Origin: a virus
Lineage: Duplodnaviria > Caudoviricetes
Direction: 5' to 3' (one strand)
IMG/VR virus record: IMGVR_UViG_3300046788_000343
Coordinates: 1 to 26,512 of that record
DNA: 26,512 nt
In this document: positions 6,990-21,152 of the stretch, piece after piece
Numbering within the stretch: the first letter of the stretch is position 1
Layout of the letters: the number at the start of each line of letters is the position of its first letter
Notes under the pieces: model-generated
Told to the model about the DNA's origin: nothing
Databases searched by the model: none
The model's input: only the letters and a program-made list of their open reading frames with translations
Translations under genes and position numbers: made by a program

Positions 6990-7433
6990 ATGGGGAGACA
7001 TCAAAAACACAATCTAGATGATCTAGCCGATGAAATAATCGAATGGTCTCAACACGCAACATCTTTGAATCTGATCGGCTTTTCCTCTCCAAAGCGTATG
7101 AGCGTCACAAAGTTGCCTGAATATGCCAACAAACATAAGAAATTTCGGGAGGCCTTGCAGCTAGCGAAGGAAAATATCTCTCAAAATAGATTTGATGCAG
7201 CATGTGCCGAAGTGATGCCTGAGAAATTCTATTCTCGTTGTGAAGGTCAATATGATCCGCTTTATCATAAATACGATAGAGAAGAGAGAAAATATGATGC
7301 TGATATCAAAGCTAAAGCAGAAGGCAACAACAGAAATCAAAAAATTATAGTTAAGGTGAAAAATGACCTTGCCCGTGGAGTTAACGTTCGAGCCAAGAAG
7401 TTATCAAATTCCAATAATAGAGGCTCTAAATAG
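6990..7433 (+). CDS. terS: Putative terminase small subunit
   Basis: Immediately upstream of and overlapping terL; size and MGR start are typical; assignment mainly positional. Confidence 0.65.
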   Translation: MGRHQKHNLDDLADEIIEWSQHATSLNLIGFSSPKRMSVTKLPEYANKHKKFREALQLAKENISQNRFDAACAEVMPEKFYSRCEGQYDPLYHKYDREERKYDADIKAKAEGNNRNQKIIVKVKNDLARGVNVRAKKLSNSNNRGSK

Positions 7434-9573
7434 TGGAACCAAACGCGCTGTCTGGGTGGTGCATAGGCGAGGAGGCAAGGACATTACTGCTTTTAACTGG
7501 TGCATTCTCCAGCTTTTGCTTAATAGTGGGTGGACTGCTTTTCATATTTTACCTACTTATAGTCAAGCTAAGAAAGTAATCTGGGATTCGTCTACGAATG
7601 ACGGCAAACGCATTCTTGATTACATTCCTCGAGAGGTAATCGAATCCAAGAACGGTCATGAGATGAAGATTCGATTCACAAATGGATCTCTTTATCAGCT
7701 TATCGGCTCGGATAACATTGATAGCCTAGTCGGCTCTAATCCTAAGATCATTATCTTCTCAGAATATGCTATTCAATCTCCTAACGCGTGGGCATATCTC
7801 AGCCCAATTCTAGAGGTTAATAAAGGCTATGCAATCTTTATCTCTACCCCGCGTGGTAAAAACCATTTCTATGATCTTGTGAATAATGCAAAAGCTAATC
7901 CTGACTGGTTTTGCGAGGTGCTATCAGTCAAAGATACTGGTGTATTGACCGAAGAAGACTTAAAAAGGATTCAAGCCGATAATGGATTCTCAGATGAACA
8001 TATGCATCAGGAGTATTACTGCAGTTTTAATCGCGGCGTGGAGGGTAGTTATTATGGGCGCATCATCGAAAAAGCGAGAGAAGAAAAAAGAATATGTAAT
8101 GTCCCATATGATACGCGCTGCCCGGTACACACTGCGTGGGACATTGGTTATGGGGACAGTACTAGTATCACCTTCTGGCAAGAGGTTGGGGGCGAATTGC
8201 GTATCATCGATTTTTATGAAGCACAAGGAGAAGGAATAGCGCATTATGCCAAAGTCATACAAAACAAGCCCTATGTATACGGCACACATTATATGCCGCA
8301 TGATGCGGGCTCGGGATCTATACAGACTGGAAGAACGTTGCAAGATGTTGCGTGGGAACAAGGCCTCAAGACAACGGTATTGGAAAGGGAAACAGATATT
8401 GCCATTGGCATTGAAGCCACTCGTTCACTATTAAGTATTGCATTCATCGATGAAACCAAATGCAAGCATCTCATCAAATGCTTAGAAAACTATCACAAAA
8501 AGTTTAATGAAAAGACCCAAGCGTATAGCGAAACGCCTATGCACGATTGGTGCTTTACTGGTGACACAAAAATATTGACGCATAACGGAACGTGTCGCAT
8601 AATGGATCTACCTAAAACAGGGAGTATTAAAACATTATGCGGATTCAAACCGTACACAAATCCACGAATAACGCGGAAAAATGCCCAACTTGTGGAGGTG
8701 AAGTTTGTCGACGGGACTATAGTGAAATGTACGCCGGAGCATTTATTTTTAACGGTAAACGGTTGGAAATCCGCAGAATCCCTAATGCCTTATACAGAGA
8801 TCCAATCATCCTTGATGAACTCACCCAATATTTCGATGGTGGATTATACCGAATATGGCCAAATGAAACATATTTCACTCGCGGAGGAAAGAAATTACAT
8901 CGAGATGTTTGGAAATCTGCGTTTGGTGAAATACCTGCAAAATGCCATATCCATCATAAAGACAGCAATCCAAGAAATAATTTACTTGAAAACCTTGAAT
9001 GTTTGCCCGCATCTGAACATTTATCAACAACTTGGAAAGATATCCCATCAAGAAAATTTGGTGATAAGGCTAGAGAAAAAGCAGCCGAATGGCATAGATC
9101 AGAAGAGGGTAGGTTGTGGCATAAAAGAAATGCAGAAAGAACAAAAAATTGGACTAAATGGAAAAGGGAGCCAAGGAATTGTTTGTTCTGTAATAAAGAA
9201 TTCATGGCAATGGTTCGTAAAAATGGTCACCAATCGAAATATTGTCACCCAAACTGTAAAGCAGCCTATTATAGAAAGCGTAAAGCATCTGGATTATAAG
9301 GAAGATGTTTGGTGTCTTACAGTTCCAGATCATGAGCATTTTAGTCTTTTCAATGGTGCTATAGTTCATAACTGTTCTCATGCTGCCGATTCTGTTCGCT
9401 ACATGGCGAATGCTCGCACGCAATTTGGGCGTGGGCCAGGATCGTTGACACAAGATAAGCTCAATCAGCTTAAAACCAACGCAGGCTATGGGCCCAAGCC
9501 AGGACCAAGATTAGGACCGCAGACGCCATTTATAGGCCCAAATAACAATAATCCATATTCAATGAGGAGATAG
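7363..9573 (+). CDS. terL: Terminase large subunit, intein-containing (462 aa after splicing)
   Basis: HRRGGKD Walker A, IIFSE Walker B, ISTPRGKNHFY, WDIGYGD; nuclease motif HDW|CSHAADSVRY is split by the intein. Confidence 0.95.
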   Translation: MTLPVELTFEPRSYQIPIIEALNSGTKRAVWVVHRRGGKDITAFNWCILQLLLNSGWTAFHILPTYSQAKKVIWDSSTNDGKRILDYIPREVIESKNGHEMKIRFTNGSLYQLIGSDNIDSLVGSNPKIIIFSEYAIQSPNAWAYLSPILEVNKGYAIFISTPRGKNHFYDLVNNAKANPDWFCEVLSVKDTGVLTEEDLKRIQADNGFSDEHMHQEYYCSFNRGVEGSYYGRIIEKAREEKRICNVPYDTRCPVHTAWDIGYGDSTSITFWQEVGGELRIIDFYEAQGEGIAHYAKVIQNKPYVYGTHYMPHDAGSGSIQTGRTLQDVAWEQGLKTTVLERETDIAIGIEATRSLLSIAFIDETKCKHLIKCLENYHKKFNEKTQAYSETPMHDWCFTGDTKILTHNGTCRIMDLPKTGSIKTLCGFKPYTNPRITRKNAQLVEVKFVDGTIVKCTPEHLFLTVNGWKSAESLMPYTEIQSSLMNSPNISMVDYTEYGQMKHISLAEERNYIEMFGNLRLVKYLQNAISIIKTAIQEIIYLKTLNVCPHLNIYQQLGKISHQENLVIRLEKKQPNGIDQKRVGCGIKEMQKEQKIGLNGKGSQGIVCSVIKNSWQWFVKMVTNRNIVTQTVKQPIIESVKHLDYKEDVWCLTVPDHEHFSLFNGAIVHNCSHAADSVRYMANARTQFGRGPGSLTQDKLNQLKTNAGYGPKPGPRLGPQTPFIGPNNNNPYSMRR
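8551..9372 (+). mobile_element. Intein (274 aa) in TerL
   Basis: Block A CFTGDTKI, block B KCTPEHLF, block F VWCLTVPDHEHF, block G IVHN followed by Cys+1. Confidence 0.93.
8637..9299 (+). CDS. HNH homing endonuclease in an alternative frame inside the intein
   Basis: LHRDVW...GEIPAKCHIHHKDSNPRNNLLENLECL...EH (HNH_3-like) plus C-terminal CxxC...CxxxC; true start uncertain. Confidence 0.85.
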   Translation: MRIQTVHKSTNNAEKCPTCGGEVCRRDYSEMYAGAFIFNGKRLEIRRIPNALYRDPIILDELTQYFDGGLYRIWPNETYFTRGGKKLHRDVWKSAFGEIPAKCHIHHKDSNPRNNLLENLECLPASEHLSTTWKDIPSRKFGDKAREKAAEWHRSEEGRLWHKRNAERTKNWTKWKREPRNCLFCNKEFMAMVRKNGHQSKYCHPNCKAAYYRKRKASGL

Positions 9574-13786: not shown

Positions 13787-14023
13787 TTATTGATATATGT
13801 GAGTTACTTCCAAAGGAGGAAAAAACATAAAATGATCTTCTGGATTTATTGGATGACATGTATTATGTTCCGTTACCCACTCTATTTCTTCTGTAAGTGT
13901 TCCATCTTCATCTCTTGAGATCAGATTAGCAGTCGCTATCGTGTATTTTTTATTCTTAAATCTCCATATCAATAACTTGCTTTTAAGTGGAGGATCACAA
14001 TCTTTTATCTTATTCCACTTCAT
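13787..14023 (-). CDS. DUF551-like protein
   Basis: MKWNKIKDCDPP...LLIW...DHFMFFPP. Confidence 0.6.
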   Translation of the reverse strand: MKWNKIKDCDPPLKSKLLIWRFKNKKYTIATANLISRDEDGTLTEEIEWVTEHNTCHPINPEDHFMFFPPLEVTHIYQ

Positions 14024-14196
14024 TTTCTATTCCTTTCTTCGATAGCGCATAGACGTCCGTGGAAGTCTTTCATTTCCTTGTTTATTTCTTCTTTCCATCC
14101 TCGTATTTCAGATTCGAAAGATTTAACATCGCTCTTTATCCAAGTAATGAGTCCAATATTTGTTGCAGCAATCGCTAAGACGGTTGGCCAATCCAT
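14020..14196 (-). CDS. Small TM plus coiled-coil protein (58 aa)
   Basis: Translated by hand: MDWPTVLAIAATNIGLITWIKSDVKSFESEIRGWKEEINKEMKDFHGRLCAIEERNRK; ATGA coupling to the next gene. Confidence 0.75.
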   Translation of the reverse strand: MDWPTVLAIAATNIGLITWIKSDVKSFESEIRGWKEEINKEMKDFHGRLCAIEERNRK

Positions 14197-14204
14197 ATTA
14201 TTTT

Positions 14205-14471
14205 CTATTCCTTATGGCAATGCATTAAGTGCGCTTTGAATTCGGCATCTTGTAGAGCCATTCTTCCTTTAAATTCGGCATCTTGTCTTTCTAATTTACC
14301 ATGGAAGTCTTTAATCTCTTCCTTGATTTCGCGGATTAATTGCAGAATGTCTCTTCGATCTGCTGCTGCTGTATTTGCTTGGTCTCTGCGATCTGCGTTT
14401 GCTTCTGTTCTTAACCAGAAGAACATTCCCAACATCGTGACTAAAAATACAGCGAATTGTGTCCATTCCAT
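14205..14471 (-). CDS. Small TM plus coiled-coil protein, paralog of 14020-14196
   Basis: MEW plus hydrophobic helix; shared E.KDFHG.L; internal repeats ADRRD x2 and QDAEFK x2. Confidence 0.8.
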   Translation of the reverse strand: MEWTQFAVFLVTMLGMFFWLRTEANADRRDQANTAAADRRDILQLIREIKEEIKDFHGKLERQDAEFKGRMALQDAEFKAHLMHCHKE

Positions 14472-15523: not shown

Positions 15524-18431
15524 ATGAGCGGCCCTACAACAACAAGCATTCTGCCTCCGGCTGTCCAACAGCAGTTGAGCATGAAACTGCTTGCTCGTCC
15601 AATGCCAGATCTGATCCATACTACAATGGGTAAAGAATAGGGATTGCCCATATAAAATTTGGCTATTTGCTGGAAACTCCTAAAGCTTTCTGGTACACTG
15701 TATGCGACAGTCAATTACAGTGTAAAAATCCAGGAGATGAAACAATGGACAATCAGCAGGAAAGATTAGAATTAAGCCCGCAATGGTTTGCAGGATTTTT
15801 TGAAGCAGAAGGATGGTTAAGTTTGATGGATACAAAGAGAGTTGAAAAGGGTGAAAGAATCTCAAGATATGTTCCAACTTGTGGCATATGTAACACAGAT
15901 TTTCATATTTTATCTTTGATTCATGACTTATTCTATCAGAATGGAATCGAATATCAGTCATATGTAAGGAAACCAAGGAAAAAAGGATATAAATTAAGTT
16001 GGCAGATACATATTTCAGGGATGAAAAAATGTATAAAATTTATAGAATTTATTACCCCGCATATGATTGGAGAGAAAAAAATAAAAGCTCAAAAAATCTT
16101 GGAATTTTGCATAAATAGGAAAAATAAGATAAATGGATTTTGTGGAGTTTCGTATTCACAGTCCGATATCGAACTATTTTGTAATATTAATTCTAAAATC
16201 CTCAACGACTACACGCCAAACACCGAAAAGGTGATGATATAGTCTGAACATACGTGAGAACGTATGAGAGGGGAATAACAAGACCCTCCGCTATGTAGGT
16301 AGCTAATATAGGTAGCTACATAGTCATAAAGTAACAGCTAGTATCCGATCACAATGGATCAGCAAGCTGGCGATATTCTGAGACGACGACGTTATCAGAA
16401 TCTACAAACGGCTCCGGTACCACTTGGTAATGGAATCGTCGACCCACCAGCGCAGCAATTGACTGCTCTGGATATTGACGCACGCATTGATTGGTTACAA
16501 GCAGCATAAGCCATGCCAATCATCTTGAAGGGGTATGAATTTGATGGTACATACCTAATCCTTCAAGAGCAGGTAGACAAAATTGCCTGCTATAAACCAG
16601 CCCTAATTGACTTGGAACTCTGACCGCGTCAAGGCGAAGAAGACAAGGCGGAAGTGTTTGAAAATAAATGATAAACGAGATATAATCTTTCCAAAAAAGG
16701 GGTTATATGGAGTGGGTACAAGTTTTAACAATTATTGTTACGTTGTTAGGTGGAATTTTTTATATTCACTCAGATGTGCGAGATATTAAAAAAGATATGC
16801 AACAACACAATGCGAGAATGGATCAACTGAGTAACAGAATTGACAAATTGTACGAGATGTTTATCGATTTATTAAAATCAAAAAACACGCCGTGAGAGAC
16901 TTAAGCGGGTAGGAACCGAAAGGTTAAGCGAAAGTCCGATCTGTGCAGGAAACGCGCAGAGAGGGGAATAACAAGACCCTCCGCCAAGAATTAACATTTT
17001 TCGAGATGAACTCGATAAAATTAATTAACATAATCCTTGGTCAACAAGTAACAGTGTGAATGCTCATAAACGAAGATCCCGTGCTCAATTCAGCGGTATC
17101 TGTCCTTGGCCAATCTCTTCGGGAAACTGAAGATCAATTGGCACGTTCGATGATGGAAGGGGGTAAAATGTGTGCTCCCTATAAATCTTGGGTGATTGAC
17201 TTGGAACTCCTAGCTGCCTAGGCAGAAGGAAGACAAGGCGGAACTGTTACTCCACGTTGGTTTAAGATTTTCATTTGTCCATATAGAGATCGTCTAAGAT
17301 CCAGAGTTTTTTGGGATACAGGACACTCTCTCCGGACAAATGTTTCCCTAAACTGAATGGCAAGCAAACATTGTTGTTTTTTAACTATGAGGTAAGGAAG
17401 AACTTGTTTAAGGAATGATAAAGTATCATTGTTGTTGGAACGCCAAATATATTGTGGCTTCCAGTTAATGTGAATCTTTTTACTTGGAGCTTTGATTTCA
17501 CGATGATCACCAGGAAAATTATCACTTAACCATTCTAACAATTCTAAAGATGAATTGTAGATATCAACAGTAAGATAATGACGATTAAGACGCTTGGAAT
17601 AGTACATTCCGAAGCAGCCTTCGCCGTCTATCAGTCCGGCAACGTAAGCAAGTTTTTCAATCATAAGGCTCCAATGTTATATGTTACGTACATTATACAA
17701 TGATGATGCGTAGAATGCAACAACAGACCGTGAACGACTAAGTCCCGAGACGCCGAAAGGTGAAGCGATAGTCTGAACAGTATAGTAATATATTGAGAGT
17801 GATCCGAAGAGATTGCTCCGCCATAGAAATATGGTCAGTAGGTTGGGAACCGAAAGTAACAGAACTGGCACCTCCGATTAACTGTACTTCAGGTACAAAC
17901 GGGGACAACCCAACCAACATTAGTCCATTGGATTGCTCAAAAGCCGTGCGCCTCTTGCGTACAGCCAATGCTCAATTCATCATGGATATTATTGAAGGTG
18001 AAAATAAATTTGGTACAGCTCCAGTCCGTACAGCATTCTTTGGTCTAGGCCACACGAATCTGTCGGCAGATCTTGACCAAATGCTTGGATTTATTAACGT
18101 AGCAAACTACGCTAATCAGTCCAATTTACTTCAACCCGAATGGGGTACCGTAAGGAACTTACGTTTCTTGCTCTCTTCCGTCGGGTCAATTACTCCAAAT
18201 GCTTCTGCCAATGGTGCAGACGTTTACAACGTTTTCATTCCAGGGCAAGAATCTTATGACATGGTTGATTTGGACGGATACTCCGCTCAATTCTGCTATG
18301 CTCCGCCTGAAATTGCATCCCCACGCTTGAGACTCTACCAGACTGCTGGTTGGAAAATGGCTCAAGTATTCAACATCACCAACACCTCTTGGATTGTCAA
18401 CCTACGTTGCACTCTCCAAGTAGCACTATAG
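15524..18431 (+). CDS. Major capsid protein (N4-gp56-like), spliced: join(15524..15631,16342..16495,16544..16574,17059..17164,17868..18431), 320 aa
   Basis: Joined exons give an uninterrupted 963-nt ORF: MSGPTTTSILPPAVQQ..HTTMG|YPITMDQQAGDILRRRRY..IDARIDW|YGTYLILQEQV|MLINEDPVLN..RETEDQLAR..GG|APPINC..FGTAPV..EWGTVRNLRF..TAGWK. Confidence 0.9.
15632..16341 (+). ncRNA. Group I intron 1 in the capsid gene (710 nt)
   Basis: P1 AUGGGU/GCCCAU with U.G at the splice site; P4 UUGCUG/CAGCAG; P3 UUUGGC/GCCAAA; P7 GACUA(16207)/UAGUC(16240); P8 with GAAA loop; terminal G. Confidence 0.93.
15745..16242 (+). CDS. LAGLIDADG homing endonuclease (single motif) in intron 1
   Basis: WFAGFFEAEGW motif; start ATG 15745 with SD AGGAG (track starts at 15667). 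Confidence 0.9.
   Translation: MDNQQERLELSPQWFAGFFEAEGWLSLMDTKRVEKGERISRYVPTCGICNTDFHILSLIHDLFYQNGIEYQSYVRKPRKKGYKLSWQIHISGMKKCIKFIEFITPHMIGEKKIKAQKILEFCINRKNKINGFCGVSYSQSDIELFCNINSKILNDYTPNTEKVMI
16496..16543 (+). ncRNA. 48-nt core-less group I-like mini-intron
   Basis: Contains an in-frame TAA; removal restores W-Y-G-T-Y; P1 UGAUUGGU/GCCAAUCA with U.G; P10 GCCAU/AUGGU; ends in G. Confidence 0.8.
16658..16686 (+). promoter_or_regulatory. Sigma70-type promoter inside intron 3
   Basis: TTGAAA-17 bp-TATAAT, 20 nt upstream of ATG 16707. Confidence 0.75.
16707..16895 (+). CDS. Intron-encoded small TM plus coiled-coil protein (not an endonuclease)
   Basis: MEWVQVLTIIVTLLGGIFYIHSD hydrophobic helix followed by heptads; SD AAGGGG; own promoter. 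Confidence 0.8.
   Translation: MEWVQVLTIIVTLLGGIFYIHSDVRDIKKDMQQHNARMDQLSNRIDKLYEMFIDLLKSKNTP
17218..17664 (-). CDS. LAGLIDADG homing endonuclease, antisense within intron 4
   Basis: LAYVAGLIDGEGCF motif; LPYLIVKKQQ; SD GGAG. Confidence 0.92.
   Translation of the reverse strand: MIEKLAYVAGLIDGEGCFGMYYSKRLNRHYLTVDIYNSSLELLEWLSDNFPGDHREIKAPSKKIHINWKPQYIWRSNNNDTLSFLKQVLPYLIVKKQQCLLAIQFRETFVRRECPVSQKTLDLRRSLYGQMKILNQRGVTVPPCLPSA
17692..17720 (-). promoter_or_regulatory. Sigma70-type promoter for the antisense endonuclease
   Basis: Minus-strand TTGCAT-17 bp-TATAAT. Confidence 0.75.
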
Positions 18432-20570: not shown

Positions 20571-20618
20571 TTTCTAGACTTATAAACACCCGTCTTATAC
20601 TATATTTAAGAGGTGTTT

Positions 20619-21152
20619 ATGGGAATAAAAGATAGCGGACTTAGTCTTAAAGAGAGACTTCTTAAAAAAAAGAAAATAAAAAAATCATGTTGGGAATGGC
20701 AAGGATTTATAATGCCAAATGGATATGGAAGAATGTCATTCAAAGGAAAAGATCAGTATGTTCATAGATTAAGTTTTGCGGCATTTATAGGAGAGATTCC
20801 TAAAGGAAAAATAATTTGTCATTCATGTGATAATCGAAAATGTATAAATCCAAAGCATTTATGGATAGGAACATTTAAAGAAAATACACAGGATGCTTGC
20901 ACGAAAGGAAAAATGAAAGGGTTTTCAAGAAAAGTTCATTCTGAAGAAAGTAAAAATAAAATGAGAAAACCTCATAATATAAATAGAAAAGGTGAAAAAC
21001 ACCCAAATGCGATTTTGGATGAAAATAAGGTAAAAGAAATTAGAAATTTATTTTCGCAAGGATTGACCAGGAAAGAAATAAGTGAGATATTTAAAATTAC
21101 GAAAAATTGTGTTAAGGATGTAGTTTTAAGGCGATCTTGGAAACACATATAA
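20619..21152 (+). CDS. Free-standing HNH homing endonuclease
   Basis: CWEWQG...GYG...HRLSF...ICHSCDNRKCINPKHL...NTQD; NUMOD3-like HSEESKNKM; C-terminal HTH; AT-rich; start GTG 20613 or ATG 20619. Confidence 0.9.
   Translation: MGIKDSGLSLKERLLKKKKIKKSCWEWQGFIMPNGYGRMSFKGKDQYVHRLSFAAFIGEIPKGKIICHSCDNRKCINPKHLWIGTFKENTQDACTKGKMKGFSRKVHSEESKNKMRKPHNINRKGEKHPNAILDENKVKEIRNLFSQGLTRKEISEIFKITKNCVKDVVLRRSWKHI

Follow-up and report, generated by a model that had tools for sequence, protein, structure and literature searches.

A coreless 48-nucleotide intron in a phage capsid gene and its likely excision by the group I intron downstream

In descriptions of natural group I introns, every intron is a ribozyme that splices in cis and removes itself. 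We describe here a gene in which one intron probably relies on its neighbor: the major capsid gene in a 26,512-nucleotide (nt) stretch of tailed-phage DNA (Caudoviricetes; IMG/VR record IMGVR_UViG_3300046788_000343), the whole of which we call the window. Its second intron, termed the stub, is 48 nt long, has no catalytic core, and is separated by a 31-nt exon from a complete group I intron, whose core we think likely to excise both. The record is a 26.5-kb phage fragment with a completeness rating of 67%, and its genes include a terminase, a P22-like portal and head genes.

Several described systems come close to this arrangement. The LittleE capsid gene has an intron that is described as efficiently spliced and that carries a LAGLIDADG-type open reading frame (ORF) on the opposite strand (PMC3706429), and Twort orf142 is described as having three introns and a 23-nt exon (PMC10136302). 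Introns 1, 3 and 4 of the present gene resemble these in the U at the 5′ junction, the terminal G and the LAGLIDADG-type ORF (PMC3706429, PMC10136302); intron 4, like the LittleE intron, has its ORF on the opposite strand (PMC3706429), and the gene as a whole recalls Twort in its several introns and very short internal exons (PMC10136302). In the available text, however, the LittleE and Twort introns are described as whole, with neither a coreless neighbor nor a helix tying one P1 to another (PMC3706429, PMC10136302). In tandem constructs a distal 5′ site can serve a second intron (PMC10136302). The cross-talk between Twort introns leads to exon skipping, whereas what we propose here is exon inclusion (PMC10136302).

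The nearest match to the stub is found in PaSSU and its relatives, “degenerate” group I introns of 56-81 nt in fungal small-subunit ribosomal DNA (rDNA) that are reported to splice by means of P1, P7, P10 and a pairing with the 3′ exon (PMC3160393). That exon-pairing helix, here called the tether, is the common feature. PaSSU is reported to keep a P7 with its bulged base, to end in U, and to splice in vitro with flanking ribosomal RNA alone, whereas the stubs lack a P7, have a terminal G (79 of 79), lie in messenger RNA (mRNA) and always have a full intron downstream; no partner intron is described for PaSSU in the parts of that account at hand (PMC3160393). In engineered trans excision-splicing ribozymes and spliceozymes, a core cuts an internal piece out of a substrate at limits set by P1, P10 and a terminal G; these designs act in trans and bear the guide themselves, whereas in the present gene the guide lies on the substrate, the stub, and the proposed core lies in cis, where it would act on two junction pairs (PMC6155759). 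In the collaborative or trans homing of phages, an intron lacking an endonuclease is moved by an enzyme encoded elsewhere and flanking DNA is co-converted (PMC2988022). The introns moved in that way are self-splicing and depend on a free-standing enzyme, whereas the stub would take catalysis and, we infer, mobility from the next intron (PMC2988022). Our literature search, which left most subscription papers and supplements outside its reach, returned no report of a coreless or neighbor-spliced group I intron.

A five-exon capsid gene and its coreless intron

An earlier note on this DNA had divided the capsid gene into five exons, and that map is exact. The joined exons (Table 1) give 963 nt and a 320-residue protein with no internal stop, which aligns without gaps to four intronless homologues of 320 residues (281-286 of 320 identical) with the four junctions in register; two further homologues, of six tested in all, needed 1 and 5 gaps. 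The N4-gp56 identity put forward in the note also stands, as both exon 5 alone (71.3 bits) and the intronless homologue P0007 (147.4 bits; 285/320 identical to the joined capsid) exceed the cut-off of 60 for TIGR04387 (capsid_maj_N4). Judged by these comparisons, the five exons together code for a major capsid protein of the N4-gp56 type. The note had added that an ORF list finds only the last exon, and the list does contain an ORF at 17793-18431 with a TTG start inside intron 4, but short ORFs also lie over exons 2 and 4.

Table 1. Capsid gene features and other elements in the window
Feature	Position	Strand	Details
Terminase large subunit with intein	7363-9573; intein ~8551-9372	+	PF14890; residues 397-670 by end motifs
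Capsid exon 1	15524-15631	+	108 nt, codons 1-36
Intron 1	15632-16341	+	Complete group I, 710 nt; P7 strands 16207-16211 and 16240-16244 (first strand taken from Rfam alignment); own-profile match 16199-16344 (E=1e-7)
LAGLIDADG-like homing endonuclease ORF, intron 1	15745-16242	+	165 residues from ATG; open frame from 15667; PF14528 E=0.0095 (weak), phrog_5046 E=1e-13
Capsid exon 2	16342-16495	+	154 nt; 16489-16495 is the 5′ strand of stub P1
Intron 2 (stub), coreless mini-intron	16496-16543	+	48 nt; P10 strand 16510-16514 (with 16544-16548), guide 16515-16521 (with 16489-16495), tether 16524-16537 (with 16550-16555 and 16560-16567), terminal G 16543
Capsid exon 3	16544-16574	+	31 nt
Intron 3	16575-17058	+	Complete group I, 484 nt, predicted partner core; guide 16585-16591; P7 16896-16902 with 16932-16937, G-binding pair G16898-C16936; own-profile matches 16567-16657 (E=1e-15), 16884-17062 (E=2e-18)
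Passenger ORF, P6 loop of intron 3	16707-16895	+	62 residues, hydrophobic N-terminus, not an endonuclease
Capsid exon 4	17059-17164	+	106 nt
Intron 4	17165-17867	+	Complete group I, 703 nt; own-profile matches 17167-17254, 17724-17863; motifs
LAGLIDADG-like endonuclease ORF, intron 4	17218-17664	-	Opposite strand; PF00961 E=0.005 (weak), phrog_5046 E=8e-22
Capsid exon 5	17868-18431	+	564 nt, codons 134-320 and stop; TIGR04387 over cut-off; phrog_1357
Free-standing HNH endonuclease gene	20613-21152	+	Among head and tail genes

As the note had observed, each of the four 5′ sites is a U·G in a P1 hairpin and each of the four introns ends in G. Its further description of four group I introns applies to introns 1, 3 and 4, and fails for intron 2. 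A motif scan finds a P3-P8 core with the P7 G-binding pair in the former three, and all match our own profile (E 1e-7 to 2e-18), a sequence-only model built from 12 short introns of relatives that includes the window's intron family by construction. Searching with the general group I model, Rfam RF00028, as the note had proposed, gave weak matches to intron 1 (28.7 bits, E=0.001) and intron 4 (21.3 bits) and none to intron 3, so that no intron reached the gathering score of 50 bits; the cores are split by ORFs. We regard introns 1, 3 and 4 as complete group I introns with cores, and as predicted ribozymes. The 48 nt of the stub, by contrast, contain no core motif and no match to our own profile or to Rfam.

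The note had taken the number of introns to be the unusual aspect of this gene. It is ordinary, since both the LittleE capsid intron and the three-intron Twort gene have been published and at least four interruptions occur in 7 of 80 relatives; what is unusual is the 48-nt coreless intron 2. The related proposal, that the introns persist because capsid production is timed, and virion assembly gated, by slow or ordered splicing, could draw on the four splicing events on a late mRNA and on the stop that mis-splicing yields. However, many close relatives are intronless, the number of interruptions per close relative runs from 0 to at least 4 over about 10 different sites, and the stub with its partner is distributed at random on the tree of these relatives (see below), while the capsid intron of LittleE is described as efficiently spliced (PMC3706429). 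The idea is thus unsupported, and we consider it improbable.

What the stub does possess are the parts of a group I substrate rather than of a group I ribozyme, as far as its sequence can tell: a P1 with U·G at the 5′ site, a P10 of five pairs with the start of exon 3, and a terminal G. Following the guide is the tether, which pairs with two segments of exon 3, and the P1 of intron 3, formed with exon 3 bases 16568-16574, starts one base past the exon strand of the tether (16567). The junction in the window folds at -39.8 kcal/mol (z -5.1; 0/200 shuffles). The loop of P1 also holds a GC-W-GC motif (16501-16508 in the window), which is present in 37 of the 45 stubs of at least 47 nt described below and in 1 of the 34 shorter ones; by eye, several full introns have a similar motif in their P5 extension.

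Given its size, the stub might excise itself or be excised by a protein, in the manner of the small degenerate fungal rDNA introns. PaSSU is of comparable length and has an intron-to-3′-exon helix (PMC3160393), and the P1-loop motif of the longer stubs could bind a factor. Yet stubs of 32-36 nt are nearly filled by P1, P10 and tether, with no room for P7, and stubs show no core motif or profile match. Such a mechanism would also leave the obligate partner and the re-addressed tether described below unexplained, and we therefore think it quite unlikely.

Stubs and their partners in relatives

To place the stub in context, the last exon was used to fetch 80 of the 112 confirmed relatives. Nine of these do not cover codons 87-98, leaving 71 informative loci: 50 are uninterrupted across these codons, 20 have a stub of 36-51 nt followed 31 nt on by a full intron in codon 98 (intron 3 in the window), and the remaining one (L059) lacks an intron at codon 98 but has a full intron of 689 nt at the stub site. 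A stub alone, lacking the codon-98 intron, occurs in none of the 71. A set ranked by whole protein (80 of 585 loci) held almost only intronless genes and is excluded from the counts. A pattern for the codon-98 intron retrieved 133 distinct stretches, of which 22 were dropped for low score as chance matches or truncated loci, although true cases are among them (L170, L247, L250 and L270). The 111 kept stretches comprise 31 with the codon-98 intron only, 29 with what we call a type-A stub, 50 with a type-B stub, and one with two full introns. Type-A stubs, including that of the window, precede a 31-nt micro-exon. Type-B stubs lie at a different site and phase, in more distant capsid lineages, and precede a 26-nt micro-exon; four of them, first assigned an 18-nt exon, were moved to the 26-nt exon by rule.

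The 79 stubs at these two sites range from 32 to 82 nt, and all end in G. Every one breaks the frame, 45 by a shift and the 34 in-frame ones by containing a stop (34/34), and therefore the stub must be removed. Translation through the stub of the window was rejected as a candidate on account of the in-frame stop that arises if it is kept in the mRNA. Skipping of exon 3 as the normal product was likewise rejected: it yields Trp and then a stop, as the earlier note had correctly pointed out.

The conservation of the stubs already largely refutes the reading of the stub as a dead remnant or an assembly error in a broken capsid gene. The fragmentary record and the likely origin of the stub by deletion from a full intron would be compatible with decay, but the two sites together hold 79 distinct stubs, among which compensatory changes occur, and the flanking exons stay near 90% identical to intronless capsids; of all the readings weighed here we find this one the least credible. 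Only slightly less remote, in our estimation, is that the ribosome hops the stub, from the Asp codon before it to an Asp-reading triplet at its end. Programmed ribosomal bypass is exemplified by T4 gene 60, and a length of about 50 nt, an early stop after the junction, a strong hairpin, and the match of Asp codon 86 with a triplet spanning the 3′ junction that also reads as Asp are all features that would suit it. This sole codon match would nonetheless make the hop delete Trp87-Tyr88, which the four gap-free intronless homologues retain, and type-B stubs lie at another site and phase. Moreover, the U·G, the terminal G and the covariation of P10 are signals of splicing.

The association of stub and full intron does not depend on searching with the partner. 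Using a partner-blind pattern, 22 of 22 type-A stubs were found to have a downstream full intron, on contigs that are largely those of the last-exon set, and partner-blind searches for type B gave the same result for 22 of 22 distinct stubs; a stub lacking a downstream full intron was not seen among these matches. All 8 stubs of the second lineage are followed by a partner, whereas among 72 stub-less loci a single one has an intron within the next 57 codons. The partner, on the other hand, occurs at codon 98 in 31 loci that have no stub, and both stub sites can be occupied by full introns (L059, L103 and L450). The dependence is therefore one-way, of stub on partner. In L095, L185 and L005 the partner intron is about 200 nt long and carries no ORF. 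The full intron at the type-B site of L450 (1216-1927 of the oriented copy) has a tandem duplication of much of its core.

Covariation, re-addressing and the proposed splicing mechanism

The pairings that define the stub, among them a P10 of 4-5 base pairs, covary. Position 2 of the type-A P10 is A-U in 11 of 29 loci and G-C in the other 18, with no mismatch, and tracks the silent third base of Tyr88; position 3 of the type-B P10 occurs as four pair types with a single mismatch in 50. P10 is fully paired (4/4) in 74 of 79 stubs as compared with 27 of 60 full codon-98 introns. An alignment of the type-A pairings, made for 28 of the 29 loci (L241, which has a long insert, was omitted), has 97.8% of its 896 cells paired and 38 cells changed on both sides; this level is matched in 0 of 500 shuffles, and slid controls reach 30-44%. 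The tether duplex is on average stronger with its own exon: type-A tethers give -13.9 kcal/mol with their own exon, -9.8 with other exons and -6.1 in shuffles, and the corresponding type-B energies are -11.9, -8.3 and -4.5 kcal/mol, the ends of 59 full introns giving -5.3 kcal/mol for comparison. The own-exon duplex beats the mean of the other exons in 28 of 29 type-A and 50 of 50 type-B stubs. By the measure of these sequence patterns, the P10 and tether pairings are under selection.

The tether also follows the partner when the partner lies elsewhere. Type-B partners are found at 26 nt (6 loci), 39 nt (8), 96 nt (3), 102 nt (1) and 168 nt (2) from the stub, and in 19 of these 20 type-B stubs the bases directly after the guide form at least 5 pairs with the exon bases immediately 5′ of the partner P1, as opposed to 52 of 286 when sites are swapped. 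Matched changes distinguish L455 from L457, whose partner lies at 96 nt, and L452, with its partner at 168 nt, from L470.

Several points tell against the reading that the core of the partner excises the tethered stub. No other exon pairs better than the stub's own in just 9 of 29 type-A and 15 of 50 type-B stubs, and the covariation tallies sequences rather than independent events, several loci being near-copies. L456 reaches only 4 unbroken pairs, and the tethers to the six distant partners are 5-9 base pairs long, with 5-20 of 78-150 exon positions scoring equally. In L439 and L463, 2 of the 22 type-B stubs, whose partner lies 32 nt away, the tether stops about 7 nt short of the partner P1 as judged by eye. 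All 29 type-A stubs have a U before the terminal G, as do only 24 of 50 type-B stubs. Finally, in L250 (1-330) the micro-exon that separates a type-A stub from the codon-98 intron contains another full intron, which divides it into exons of about 14 and 17 nt, and because of this interruption the tether would need prior splicing or long-range pairing. The partner intron of L439 and L463 is itself unlike other partners, with an opposite-strand endonuclease that lies between P1 and the core in a P2-like stem.

The out-of-register tether of these two stubs would suit an alternative in which the stub is a substrate for any core, be it that of intron 1, intron 4 or an excised intron acting in trans, with the exon 3 pairing merely presenting the 3′ splice site. 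P1 and P10 of the stub are self-contained, and three related cores are present in this gene. This alternative does not readily explain, however, why an upstream intron is missing from many loci with a stub (L003, L004 and L005), why the tether tracks the P1 of the downstream partner over five distances, or why the downstream partner was absent from no stub found. We consider it unlikely, though less so than the other alternatives discussed above.

The explanation that we judge clearly the most probable is that the stub is a non-autonomous intron, excised by the core of intron 3 with the help of the predicted tether. The tether helix would bring the stub P1 directly beside the P1 of intron 3, so that the bases of both helices are predicted to meet at one junction, at the linker into the core. 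In intron 3 this linker is short and A-rich and runs directly into P3, with no P2. Because the tether abuts the partner P1 and the P1-P3 linker is short, both P1 helices may share one anchoring point, from which either could dock. The terminal G of the stub and the start of exon 3 would then sit in the loop of the tether, where P10 can form.

Two routes are conceivable for this shared core. The one we favor, by a modest preference, removes the stub first. The core would dock the stub P1, free guanosine would open it, and the terminal G of the stub would then occupy the G site while P10 picks out the first bases of exon 3 and thereby prevents a skip to exon 4; the core of intron 3 would afterwards splice itself out. 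Nearly as likely is a route in which intron 3 goes first, and its terminal G attacks the stub P1 to release one joined RNA of intron 3 and stub.

Extending the proposal to all stubs, we lean toward a view of these 32-82-nt modules as a splice guide joined to an “address” strand that pairs with the exon before the P1 of any downstream intron. One core would then perform two splicings, and the address could be rewritten when the partner moves. With the partner endonuclease aimed at the stub site, stub and partner would amount to one mobile element split by a host exon. If the neighbor does excise it, the stub is a parasite of a ribozyme and provides a natural case of one core acting on two substrates per transcript. 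It would also show how splice signals can part from the catalytic machine, a separation that is a step assumed in ideas on the origin of non-autonomous introns, and would represent a compact natural design for targeted RNA excision. A concern for annotation follows from the fact that stub-bearing capsid genes read as broken.

Origin, spread and neighboring elements

When mapped on the last-exon tree (67 rows), the stub and its partner require 18 changes, compared with 17.9 for shuffled labels, and the pair is therefore gained or lost as a unit. Such scattered presence fits selfish mobile elements. The stub itself likely arose by deletion from a full intron. At the DNA level, the full intron occupying the stub site of L059 shares 83% identity with the partners of L061 and L003, 69-83% with eight type-A partners and 50-57% with twelve type-B partners, and its endonuclease groups with those of the same eight type-A partners.

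The codon-98 site is intact in L059, and a single type-B endonuclease cluster covers partners at both 26 and 96 nt. Since the stub site alone is interrupted in every member of the L059 cluster and likewise of this type-B cluster, it is suggested as the target of the partner endonuclease, and we suspect that the partner LAGLIDADG enzyme probably cuts there. A caution is that most of the endonuclease clusters stay within a single partner site and so do not decide the target; those of L030 and L051 lie not in the partner but in the intron that follows it. Were the enzyme to cut at the stub site, stub, micro-exon and partner would spread together by homing, and the stub would keep the enzyme from attacking the phage that encodes it, while co-conversion would copy the stub as well. 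Intron 3 of the window has a small passenger ORF in place of an endonuclease.

This 62-residue passenger ORF has no match in Pfam or NCBIfam. Its PHROG matches are weak and include spanin and holin families, and it has Atlas neighbors at 0.92, one of which is auto-named holin. It is about 31-33% identical over 40-55 residues to two free-standing small ORFs upstream, 14020-14196 and 14205-14471 (-), and similar ORFs occur in L068, L025, L008, L250 and the codon-98 intron of L187. Short, unrelated P6-loop ORFs are present in the 295-432-nt codon-98 introns of L022, L036, L044, L052, L054, L071, L091, L216 and L237. Codon-98 introns therefore appear to acquire varied passengers. The endonuclease of intron 1, for its part, groups with endonucleases from other codon-36 introns.

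Besides the capsid introns, the window contains the free-standing HNH gene and the terminase intein listed in Table 1. The DNA of the intein also encodes, in another frame, a 220-residue HNH endonuclease (ORF 8637-9299, +), and the terminase frame stays open. This recalls the out-of-frame HNH inserts described in PMC11855218, but here an intein domain is present. A possible lead to the host comes from two close capsid relatives (L168 and L169) in a bin labelled uncultured Legionellaceae; these are two short contigs, which do not fix the host.

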